Shown here: one piece after another, positions 2,339-4,053 of the stretch
Position numbering within the stretch: position 1 is the first letter of the stretch
Layout of the letters: each line of letters starts with the position of its first letter
IMG/VR virus record: IMGVR_UViG_3300014356_000009
Reading direction: 5' to 3' (one strand)
Origin: a virus
Taxonomy: Duplodnaviria; Heunggongvirae; Uroviricota; Caudoviricetes
Length of the DNA stretch: 4,074 nt
Notes under the pieces: generated by a model
What the model was told of the DNA's origin: nothing
Databases searched by the model: none
Seen by the model: the letters and a program-made list of their open reading frames with translations, nothing else
Program-made: the position numbers and the translations under genes

Positions 2339-2611
2339 CTACCTGCCTTGACGAAAGACCTTAAGAACATCGTTAAACTGACTTACGGATATGTCTTCTT
2401 TGAGCAGCTTTTCCAGAAATGCGTTTGGAATGAACGTATATCCCTCCTCTTTTGGTAGAGACGGGAGCAACGCCCTCGCCTCAGCCTTCAGAAGCTCAGT
2501 TCTGGCAACTTTCACAAAAGAGATTTGAGTTCTTTCATCAATGGAACGAAGGAAGCGCAAACGCTTAGCTTCTTTGTGTGTATCAGGTGGATTAAAGCCT
2601 TTGTTTCGCAT
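2339..2611 (-). CDS. Hypothetical small protein (about 91 aa), function unknown
   Basis: Open frame with ATG at 2609-2611 preceded by GAGG 8 nt upstream. Its stop TAG (2339-2341) lies 2 nt before the O-like start codon, suggesting translational coupling. The frame stays open for about 98 codons through a region with no other assigned gene. No family recognised by eye. Confidence 0.5.
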   Translation of the reverse strand: MRNKGFNPPDTHKEAKRLRFLRSIDERTQISFVKVARTELLKAEARALLPSLPKEEGYTFIPNAFLEKLLKEDISVSQFNDVLKVFRQGR

Positions 2612-2616
2612 ATAAT
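2611..2616 (+). promoter_or_regulatory. Candidate -10 hexamer (TATAAT) of a pO-like promoter for an antisense RNA
   Basis: Perfect TATAAT on the + strand at 2611-2616, about 45 nt upstream of an intrinsic terminator. The -35 region is poor (TGGATT at 2588-2593). Confidence 0.4.
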
Positions 2617-2622
2617 TACCTC

Positions 2623-2691
2623 GTTGGATGTTGTTAAAATTCCATTTGTATTTGATCAGAACGCTCGGTCTTGCACACCGGGCGTTTTTTC
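2623..2691 (+). ncRNA. OOP-like antisense RNA overlapping the 3' end of cII
   Basis: Predicted ~70-nt transcript from the TATAAT at 2611-2616 to the terminator at 2662-2690, antisense to the last ~19 codons of cII. This matches the arrangement of lambda OOP RNA (77 nt, antisense to the cII 3' end). Confidence 0.45.
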
Positions 2692-2933
2692 TTTGTGATT
2701 TCATCAAGCGCATACTTAAAAGCCCTGCTAATCGGACTGATGTCTGATGCCATTCCGAAAGCACACAAGACCGAAGCAATAAATCTCCAGTCCGTTCTGC
2801 TTATCTTCGATTCATGACAGCCAATCATCTTTGCCAGACCGCGCTGGGTAAGCGTTGACAGGTTGATGAGTAAATCTGTTTCTGCGCGATCAACGTCGCG
2901 CTGTGATAGTTTGCTGTAACTTGTTTGTTCCAT
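2634..2933 (-). CDS. cII: Transcriptional activator CII (lysogeny establishment)
   Basis: 99-aa ORF. C-terminus KKKRPVCKTERSDQIQMEF is nearly identical to the lambda CII C-terminus (KKRPAATERSEQIQMEF, from memory). A central HTH-like segment is present (ESKISRTDW versus lambda KSQISRW). It lies directly downstream of cro and the nutR-like site. Confidence 0.9.
   Translation of the reverse strand: MEQTSYSKLSQRDVDRAETDLLINLSTLTQRGLAKMIGCHESKISRTDWRFIASVLCAFGMASDISPISRAFKYALDEITKKKRPVCKTERSDQIQMEF
2662..2693 (+). terminator. Intrinsic terminator (hairpin plus T-run) on the + strand, inside the cII coding region
   Basis: Stem CGCTCGG (2662-2668) pairs with CCGGGCG (2678-2684): 7 bp including one G-U pair, with a 9-nt loop. 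It is followed by TTTTTTCTTTG (2685-2695). Confidence 0.65.
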
Positions 2934-3039: not shown

Positions 3040-3267
3040 TTATGCAGCCAGAAGGTTCTTTTTGCTTATTTCAAGCATTTCGCTTGCTTGATATTTGCCA
3101 CCAGAAATCTCTTCGATTTTTGATGCGTATTTAGTTTTCCCAAAAAACTCAGTCTTAGGGAGGAAGCCGTTTTTGAGCCACTTATAGACAGCCCTTTCGC
3201 TAACTCCACAAGCCTTCGCAACTTCAGGGATGCCGACACCTTTAATCGGCTCATCAAGATTTTGCAT
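3040..3267 (-). CDS. cro: Cro-like repressor (small HTH DNA-binding protein)
   Basis: 75-aa ORF divergent from cI. It is the first gene of the operon containing the nutR-like site and cII. HTH-like segment IPEVAKACGVSERAVYKWLKNG. SD AAGGA upstream of the ATG (3265-3267). Assignment is by position and HTH, not by similarity to lambda Cro. Confidence 0.8.
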   Translation of the reverse strand: MQNLDEPIKGVGIPEVAKACGVSERAVYKWLKNGFLPKTEFFGKTKYASKIEEISGGKYQASEMLEISKKNLLAA

Positions 3268-3345
3268 AGGAATATCCTTTTTCGTACTTTCAGTACGTAT
3301 TATGGTTGAACTGAAAGTTTTTGCAAGTGCTTTAGTATCGTACTC
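3268..3345. promoter_or_regulatory. Operator region (OR-like) with divergent PR-like and PRM-like promoters
   Basis: 78-bp cI-cro intergenic region. Three inverted repeats are centred near 3290 (CGTACT-TTC-AGTACG, 3283-3297), 3314 (AACT-GAA-AGTT, 3309-3319) and 3339 (AGTA-TCG-TACT, 3334-3344), spaced 24-25 bp. Leftward PR-like: -35 TTGCAA (3321-3326), -10 CATAAT (3299-3304, - strand), 16-bp spacer. Rightward PRM-like: -10 TAGTAT (3333-3338) with a weak -35. Confidence 0.6.
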
Positions 3346-4053
3346 ATGGTTCAGAATGAAAAAGTGCGCAAAGAATTCGCCCAGCGGCTAGCGCAAGCCT
3401 GTAAAGAAGCTGGTCTTGATGAACATGGTAGGGGGATGGCCATAGCCCGTGCCCTTTCTCTTTCGTCCAAAGGCGTTAGCAAATGGTTTAATGCTGAGTC
3501 TTTACCGCGTCAGGAAAAAATGAATGCGCTTGCGAAATTTCTAAACGTTGATGTTGTTTGGCTTCAGCACGGCACTTCGTTAAATGGAGCGAATGATGAA
3601 GATACTCTTTCATTTGTTGGCAAATTAAAAAAAGGGTTAGTGCGCGTGGTTGGTGAGGCAATTCTTGGTGTTGATGGTGCCATCGAGATGACCGAAGAGC
3701 GCGATGGGTGGCTCAAAATTTATAGCGATGATCCAGATGCCTTTGGTCTTCGTGTGAAAGGAGACAGCATGTGGCCTAGAATAAAATCAGGAGAATATGT
3801 ACTCATTGAGCCTAACACCAAAGTATTCCCGGGTGATGAGGTGTTTGTCAGAACCGTTGAAGGACACAACATGATCAAAGTTCTTGGCTATGACAGAGAT
3901 GGAGAATACCAATTTACAAGCATCAACCAGGACCACAGGCCAATAACGTTACCTTATCATCAAGTAGCAAAGGTGGAGTATGTGGCTGGTATTCTGAAGC
4001 AATCTCGCCATCTGGATGACATCGAGGCAAGGGAGTGGCTGAAAAGTTCGTGA
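3346..4053 (+). CDS. cI: CI-type phage repressor with C-terminal S24 (LexA-like) autopeptidase domain
   Basis: 235-aa ORF divergent from cro. N-terminal HTH-type region. The C-terminal domain has the S24 Ser/Lys dyad context (GDSMWP, Ser141; NMIKVLG, Lys178). No Shine-Dalgarno precedes the ATG, consistent with a leaderless transcript. Confidence 0.9.
   Translation: MVQNEKVRKEFAQRLAQACKEAGLDEHGRGMAIARALSLSSKGVSKWFNAESLPRQEKMNALAKFLNVDVVWLQHGTSLNGANDEDTLSFVGKLKKGLVRVVGEAILGVDGAIEMTEERDGWLKIYSDDPDAFGLRVKGDSMWPRIKSGEYVLIEPNTKVFPGDEVFVRTVEGHNMIKVLGYDRDGEYQFTSINQDHRPITLPYHQVAKVEYVAGILKQSRHLDDIEAREWLKSS

Follow-up and report, generated by a model that had tools for sequence, protein, structure and literature searches.

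An OOP-like antisense RNA element predicted opposite the 3' end of cII in a lambdoid phage sequence

Does the phage DNA of IMG/VR record IMGVR_UViG_3300014356_000009 (Caudoviricetes) encode, opposite the 3' end of its cII gene, a counterpart of the OOP RNA of phage lambda? In lambda, OOP is a self-terminating antisense RNA of 77 nt that is transcribed from pO to tO, and its expression abolishes CII activity (PMC3349717, PMC5869508). For the stretch analyzed here (4,074 nt of that record, one strand; hereafter the window), an initial annotation made from the sequence alone had claimed the same architecture.

Gene context and anatomy of the element

The window contains six long ORFs, whose order is the classic lambdoid early-right (immunity and replication) arrangement, reversed in the window:

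16-1392, - strand: DnaB-like helicase
1389-2336, - strand: O-like replication initiator
2339-2611, - strand: small ORF of 90 aa, function unknown (phrog_2519), with its ATG at 2611-2609 and the Shine-Dalgarno (SD) sequence GAGG at 2622-2619
2634-2933, - strand: cII (99 aa), the presumed antisense target (Pfam PF05269 Phage_CII, E = 1.2e-33; PHROG 191; RefSeq annotation of E89)
3040-3267, - strand: cro
3346-4053, + strand: cI-type repressor (Peptidase_S24 plus HTH)

The closest public sequences are Stx2a-converting phages (98.2%) and a prophage of E. coli E89, which matches the window in one piece, also at 98.2%. The RefSeq annotation of the E89 prophage lists the same six genes as the window and zero RNA features.

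Several other features of the region were noted. The gap between cI and cro has TTGCAA-16 bp-CATAAT at 3299-3326 of the - strand; no other good promoter-like site lies near cro, and this one, which has a short hairpin (3283-3297) just downstream, is likely to be pR. The longest form of the O-like ORF starts at 2336 and nearly abuts the small ORF, whereas the RefSeq start for the 98% identical E89 copy is the ATG at 2276 (MENQKTGY...), which leaves a 62-nt gap. Within the O-like gene, about ten repeats with a 12-nt period (CATGTGCGG / TTGTGCGG type) at 1779-1921 encode a His/Ala-rich stretch and are adjoined at 1730-1775 by a G-run and an A+T-rich stretch (ggggggtaggggggtattatttatattcttgttaata). 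Together, the repeats and the A+T-rich region look like a replication origin with iterons inside the initiator gene, as in lambda. In O121-type Stx2a prophages (L110 1-2394, E. coli 2014C-3599; LC616031-type phages), which otherwise match the window at 98%, the helicase gene contains ~1 kb of extra sequence. Because of this insertion, which could be an intein or a homing element, RefSeq lists the O121-type helicase as three pseudogene fragments; the helicase of the window is intact.

The element itself is on the + strand and consists of the following parts:

2588-2593, + strand: candidate -35 hexamer TGGATT (3/6 matches to TTGACA, 17-bp spacer; weak)
2611-2616, + strand: pO-like -10 hexamer TATAAT, a consensus match without a TGn extension, read from the sequence
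2623-2690, + strand: predicted OOP-like RNA of ~68 nt, with an inferred 5' end and a 3' end within the T-run
2658-2690, + strand: intrinsic terminator equivalent to tO (terminator scan, fold, covariance model and covariation)
2634-2690, both strands: overlap of the RNA with cII, the presumed antisense duplex (57 nt; last 18 cII codons plus stop)

The -10 hexamer is present at the position first reported for it, and the clear intrinsic terminator with a T-run that had been described together with it was confirmed. Its core stem is formed by CGCTCGGT (2662-2669) and ACCGGGCG (2677-2684), which enclose a 7-nt loop (2670-2676), can be extended via A-U and G-U pairs to 2658-2688 and are followed by TTTTTT at 2685-2690. 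In a consensus scan, this hairpin, with 12 pairs of which 6 are G-C, was the top terminator-like site of the window. The same scan found zero terminator-like sites on the - strand at the hairpin, and no T-run follows the hairpin on that strand. Thus, a bidirectional terminator was rejected, and the terminator is unidirectional. Computational folding, which the initial annotation had suggested as a check, returned the terminator hairpin: the RNA from 2623 to 2693 folds at -20.8 kcal/mol, compared to a mean of -12.3 for shuffled sequences (z = -3.0; 1 of 200 shuffles was as stable), and z ranged from -3.0 to -3.4 across computations on the predicted RNA. Two + strand ORFs that cross the element (2525-2698 and 2628-2747) run through the terminator, have no support and were dismissed.

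The predicted 5' end, G2623, is 7 nt past the -10 hexamer and was set by alignment with the lambda 5' end GUUGAUAG. The resulting RNA of 68 nt is close to the ~70 nt proposed earlier, and its overlap with cII, proposed as ~19 codons, comes to 18 codons plus the stop; complementarity over these 57 nt is perfect because the two are arranged in cis on opposite strands. It had also been proposed that the -10 hexamer overlaps both the start codon and the SD region of the small ORF. Only base 2611 is common to the hexamer and the ATG (2611-2609). The hexamer fills the spacer between SD sequence and ATG, and an overlap with the SD sequence was not borne out, as GAGG (2619-2622) lies between the -10 hexamer and the predicted +1.

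A promoter scan of the window did not list the pO-like site, because its best -35 matches only 3/6 positions of the consensus. The bases of the candidate -35 also encode part of the small ORF on the opposite strand. After the -35 positions of all upstream variants had been compared, we dropped the hexamer as evidence, since a 3/6 match at one of three spacings is too probable by chance. Given the poor -35 and the lack of an extended -10, the strength of the pO-like promoter is uncertain.

Homology to lambda oop and conservation among relatives

In an alignment with lambda (38570-38739, reverse strand), near identity extends over the cII stop codon, the terminator and the T-run, so that the 3' 52 nt are almost the same, while the 5' 20-25 nt of the predicted RNA gave no convincing alignment. 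We also built a covariance model from the 3' halves of eight other oop copies, excluding both the window and Phi24B. Its sole significant match in the window is at 2640-2691 of the + strand (49.1 bits, E = 3e-8). Searching Rfam 15 with the window at E up to 1 yielded zero matches. As a search with lambda's own oop region yielded no relevant match either, Rfam contains no OOP family and its miss on the window is uninformative. Thus, the claim of an OOP-like architecture is supported, and the element is homologous to lambda oop beyond a mere likeness of layout.

It should be noted that CII of the window is 36% identical to lambda CII overall, yet its last ~17 residues are nearly the same, and that relatives with 70-80% identical CII bodies have quite different tails. 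It is with oop, and not with the protein body, that the CII tail travels.

Conservation was assessed in 80 cII loci from viral contigs, which represent the close relatives, and in a wider set of 21 loci from genomes of different species, for which a cII alignment served as query. The modules of lambda, HK629, VT2-Sakai, Phi24B, g341c and BTP1 were added. The 23 distinct modules obtained include these six and 16 of the 21 genome loci, the latter representing Escherichia, Tatumella, Pantoea, Pectobacterium, Mixta, Edwardsiella and others. In all 23, which are the modules definable by script, the gene after cII starts at a [C/T]ATAAT; at 3 further loci, only weaker hexamers were found by eye. The distance from the end of the -10 hexamer to the end of the T-run is 58-77 nt and the overlap with cII 38-60 nt in 23/23 modules. 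A hairpin abuts the T-run in every module, with at least 6 perfect pairs in 22 and with 11 pairs and a single mismatch in one.

The stems themselves differ, with 14 different 6-bp stem bases among the 23 modules. With pairs counted from the T-run, 98.8% of the cells were paired, compared to 66% in column shuffles (0/2000 as high) and to 40-52% in a control in which the partner was slid by 1-2 nt; the hairpins were located by a pairing search in each sequence, a bias toward pairing that the shuffle controls offset in part, and the sequences are related. When the 42 nt before the T-run were shuffled with dinucleotides preserved, a perfect abutting hairpin of at least 6 bp resulted in 5.8% of cases vs. 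the 22/23 observed. In a model-based alignment of the closer relatives, 99.2% of the cells were paired and two pairs had changed in a compensatory manner (C-G to U-A and G-C to C-G); the covariation score of this alignment was reached by 0/500 shuffles. A first model-based alignment (A5), which contained opposite-strand matches on the palindromic hairpin, was left out of the counts. RNAalifold found no structure on a plain MAFFT alignment of 20 modules because stem lengths and loops differ and put the columns out of register, and the T-run-anchored pair table and the covariance-model alignment were used in its place.

Could the hairpin and T-run simply follow from the C-terminal codons of cII (KKRP...ERS), and the TATAAT be an accident of the A+T-rich spacer of a ribosome-binding site, with no functional RNA at all? 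The stem arms are indeed R-P and E-R-S codons, the T-run is the reverse of Lys codons, the -10 hexamer lies in an SD-ATG spacer that would be A+T-rich anyway, and the -35 is weak. Among the relatives, however, the CII C-terminal peptide varies freely (e.g., KKRPVCKTERS, KKSPAATEDF, KKSASGKGADS and EKRPAVGSSLDA), yet a hairpin with a T-run is always kept, with 14 stems, which is the opposite of what constraint on the protein only would produce. Since the stem changes alter the C-terminal peptide, the structure is kept at the protein's expense and not because of the protein. In addition, [C/T]ATAAT is retained before unrelated genes, and transcripts were detected at the homologous sites of lambda, P22 and BTP1 (PMC3349717, PMC13397905, PMC7067206). 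We therefore consider an origin as a by-product of coding sequence highly improbable.

A terminator of this kind might also serve as an insulator that blocks stray + strand transcription from the replication region into cII, cro and the operators, independently of the TATAAT. Such a role would suit a strong, unidirectional + strand terminator. There is, however, no + strand gene or other promoter-like site upstream in the window, and the fixed 58-77 nt from -10 hexamer to T-run in 23 modules argues for a single promoter-terminator unit, which makes the insulator hardly credible. In sum, what we observed at this locus is the anatomy of an oop element, its homology to lambda oop, a conserved promoter position and conserved terminator pairing.

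At the promoter, a lambda-type 5' part (TGT-CATAAT-[G/T]ACTCCTGT...) is found in 39 of the 80 close relatives and the type of the window (GCA-TATAAT-TACCTCG...) in 36. Each type precedes several unrelated upstream sequences, with at least six unrelated contexts among the close relatives. Similarity upstream ends a few bases past the ATG of the next gene, which shows that the -35 region is not conserved. In a lambda/P22 hybrid, pO was composed of the lambda -10 and the P22 -35 (Hayes et al., PMC3349717). In lambda-type copies, CATAAT is preceded by TGT or TGC, and it is plausible that CATAAT with TGn and consensus TATAAT without it are each a way to spare the -35. A LexA-like motif is found at the same offset in 13 of the 23 modules and is absent from the window, Phi24B and other short forms.

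We also observed TGG(A/T)(A/T)(A/T) exactly 17 bp before the -10 hexamer in several upstream contexts (the window and loci L029, L042 and L052), with the variants TGGATT, TGGTAA, TGGAAT and TGGTAT, often preceded by CC or AG. Its recurrence may be due to chance, to distant homology of the small ORFs or to a weakly conserved -35.

Some copies are recombinant within oop. Loci such as L051 and L054 combine a window-type 5' end with the lambda-type CCATCTGGATTTGTTC segment, L042 combines a lambda-type 5' end with the window-type CCATTTGTATTTGATC, and in L059 the -10 hexamer and upstream sequence were lost by rearrangement. Breakpoints of homology between the window and other phages fall at ~2604, 2633-2638 and 2676-2678, i.e., at the -10 hexamer, the cII stop and the terminator loop. 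The oop segment behaves as a joint at which the immunity and replication modules are recombined.

Proposed action on cII and on the replication genes

Taken together, the sequence comparisons suggest that the element is very probably a transcribed, self-terminating OOP RNA that regulates cII as a cis-antisense RNA. Host RNA polymerase with sigma-70 would start at the pO-like promoter, with +1 at about G2623, and transcription of the + strand would run against the pR-driven cro-cII-replication message as far as the intrinsic terminator within the last part of cII. The product, an RNA of ~68 nt, would be the full complement of the 3'-terminal 57 nt of cII plus the 11 nt after them. By analogy with lambda, pairing of this RNA with the cII message would form a duplex that is cleaved by RNase III, and the cleavage would lower cII expression and favor lysis over lysogeny. 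In addition, pR transcription into the replication genes may be reduced by the convergent promoter. We infer that RNA is made from this copy, and likewise its exact ends and the RNase III mechanism, from the lambda counterpart.

According to the accounts of Krinke and Wulff (1987, 1990) given in later papers (PMC2327240, PMC5869508, PMC12197685), lambda OOP promotes RNase III-dependent cleavage of the cII message. Following SOS induction, lambda OOP has little or no role in the elimination of CII (PMC2327240), so that the physiological weight of the RNA may be modest.

The main job might instead belong to the promoter: a convergent pO-like promoter would hinder pR transcription bound for the small ORF, the O-like gene and the origin and so tune the initiation of replication, while the short RNA, soon halted by the terminator, would be a by-product. 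In lambda, an active pO reduces transcription from pR, and replication of phage and plasmids suffers when pO is lost (PMC3985674). The promoter of the window coincides with the start of translation of the gene that directly follows cII and lies ahead of an O-like gene with iteron-like repeats, and the best-conserved feature of the modules is the location of the -10 hexamer where the next gene begins. A primary role of the promoter leaves unexplained, however, why the terminator is always 38-60 nt inside cII and why the RNA always overlaps cII. Moreover, when nucleotides 2-46 of lambda oop were replaced and the promoter and terminator were kept, cII inactivation was abolished (PMC3349717). We consider it unlikely that the promoter is the main function; the two roles are compatible and do not exclude each other.

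The antisense RNA would not represent a new kind of biology. OOP is among the oldest known antisense regulators, and the element belongs to a family already known from a well-studied phage group, as a shorter form of lambda OOP in a Shiga-toxin-type lambdoid prophage. The conservation of the promoter-RNA-terminator module in prophages of many Enterobacterales genera is of modest value, as are the compensatory stem changes paid for by the CII C-terminal tail, which make a clean case of RNA constraint overriding protein sequence.

The short form and its counterparts in Stx phages, P22 and lambda

The whole element is present in Phi24B (vB_EcoP_24B), which is 97.9% identical to the window over 2604-2698 and has the same -10 hexamer, 5' segment, hairpin and T-run; its sequence upstream of the -10 hexamer differs, and hence so do the -35 region and the next gene. 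O121 Stx2a phages are 97.6% identical over 2575-2698, and the O121/O157 Stx2a prophages, too, have the -10 hexamer, hairpin, T-run and 5' segment of the window. Among 5,426 complete E. coli genomes, 382 (~7%), the type strain included, carry the 5' half of the short type (2604-2662); the only annotated features under these matches are the CII gene and a hypothetical protein. The element is also unannotated in the Phi24B and O121/O157 Stx2a records. Thus, it has neither a RefSeq/GenBank annotation nor an Rfam model despite its occurrence in ~7% of the E. coli genomes (5' half) and in Stx2a phages (whole element). The records of HK629 and HK633, in contrast, annotate a lambda-type copy, described as 'similar to coliphage lambda oop RNA' and, for HK629, with a 2bp mismatch. 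According to previous papers, Stx phages have oop-like sequences in their cII-O regions (PMC5488031), and OOP is given for 'lambda and Stx phages' (PMC12197685); our literature search for direct detection or mapping of oop in Phi24B or other Stx phages returned only reviews.

Hayes et al. used a 33-bp block of promoter and 5'-end sequence (ACTGGATCaATCcACAGGAGTaATTATGaCAAA) to locate oop in lambdoid phages (PMC3349717). This block is not conserved in the window, where CAACATCCAACGAGGTAATTATATGCGAAA is found in the corresponding place and only GAGGTAATTAT..ATG is common to both. Surveys that rely on the block would therefore miss the type of the window. The block is a marker of the lambda-type subgroup and not of the OOP family, as 10 of the 23 modules are without the LexA-like CTGT-N8-[AC]CAG that it contains.

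A LexA-binding sequence was reported within lambda oop-pO (Lewis et al., 1994, as cited in PMC5869508). At the oop 5' end, lambda has CTGTTGATAGATCCAG, which is one mismatch from the LexA consensus CTGT-N8-ACAG and, judging from its fit to that consensus, is presumably the published site. This LexA-box-like motif (CTGT-N8-CCAG) is missing from the window, and a search near 2588-2693 for CTGT-N8-ACAG with up to 1 mismatch found no occurrence. A tentative reading, to which we would give a low probability, is that the window carries a distinct short OOP subclass, which is common in Stx2a and other E. coli prophages and is characterized by a consensus -10, by the lack of the LexA-box-like operator and of the 5' stem-loop, and by a largely unstructured 5' third; its OOP would be constitutive and not driven by DNA damage if LexA restrains lambda-type pO only. 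If so, the short subclass would reduce CII levels and tip these Shiga-toxin phages toward lysis and toxin release independently of SOS. The split of the family into members with and without the LexA-box-like motif could thus matter for the coupling of Stx-phage lysis to DNA damage.

P22 and BTP1 have the same module, with CATAAT where the next gene begins, followed by a short 5' segment, the stop of a cII-family gene, a hairpin and a U-run. Their stem, GGCCUCGAAGAAU.../...GUUCUUCGGGGC, is entirely different from that of the window; they overlap the gene by just 38 nt and carry the LexA-box-like CTGTTGATTGATCCAG. For P22, a 63-nt oop RNA was recovered by small-RNA sequencing (PMC13397905), and the OOP annotation of BTP1 is based on transcriptome data from a Salmonella lysogen (PMC7067206); the supplementary files of the latter paper contain zero occurrences of OOP coordinates.

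The closest comparison is with lambda itself. In both phages, the RNA (predicted in the case of the window) converges on the 3' end of cII, to which it is antisense, and ends at an intrinsic terminator within the cII coding sequence, with a common stem (CGCTCGG/CCGGGCG) and a U-run. In lambda, the -10 hexamer of pO, CATAAT, occupies the equivalent place over the ATG of O, the gene after cII, so that the gene sharing the promoter DNA is O in lambda and the 90-aa ORF in the window. Lambda CATAAT is accompanied by TGT, whereas the window has consensus TATAAT without TGn. The predicted RNA of the window (~68 nt) is 8-9 nt shorter than that of lambda (76-77 nt), while its overlap with cII is 57 nt, compared to 52 nt (PMC5869508) or, with the stop, 55 nt (PMC3349717) in lambda; the terminator loop of the window is 3 nt longer, which corresponds to one extra cII codon. 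Lambda OOP combines a strong 5' stem-loop of ~10 bp with the terminator (-28.5 kcal/mol), whereas the predicted RNA of the window combines a marginal 5' hairpin of 4+2 bp with the terminator (-20.3 kcal/mol), and its 5' half is mostly unpaired.
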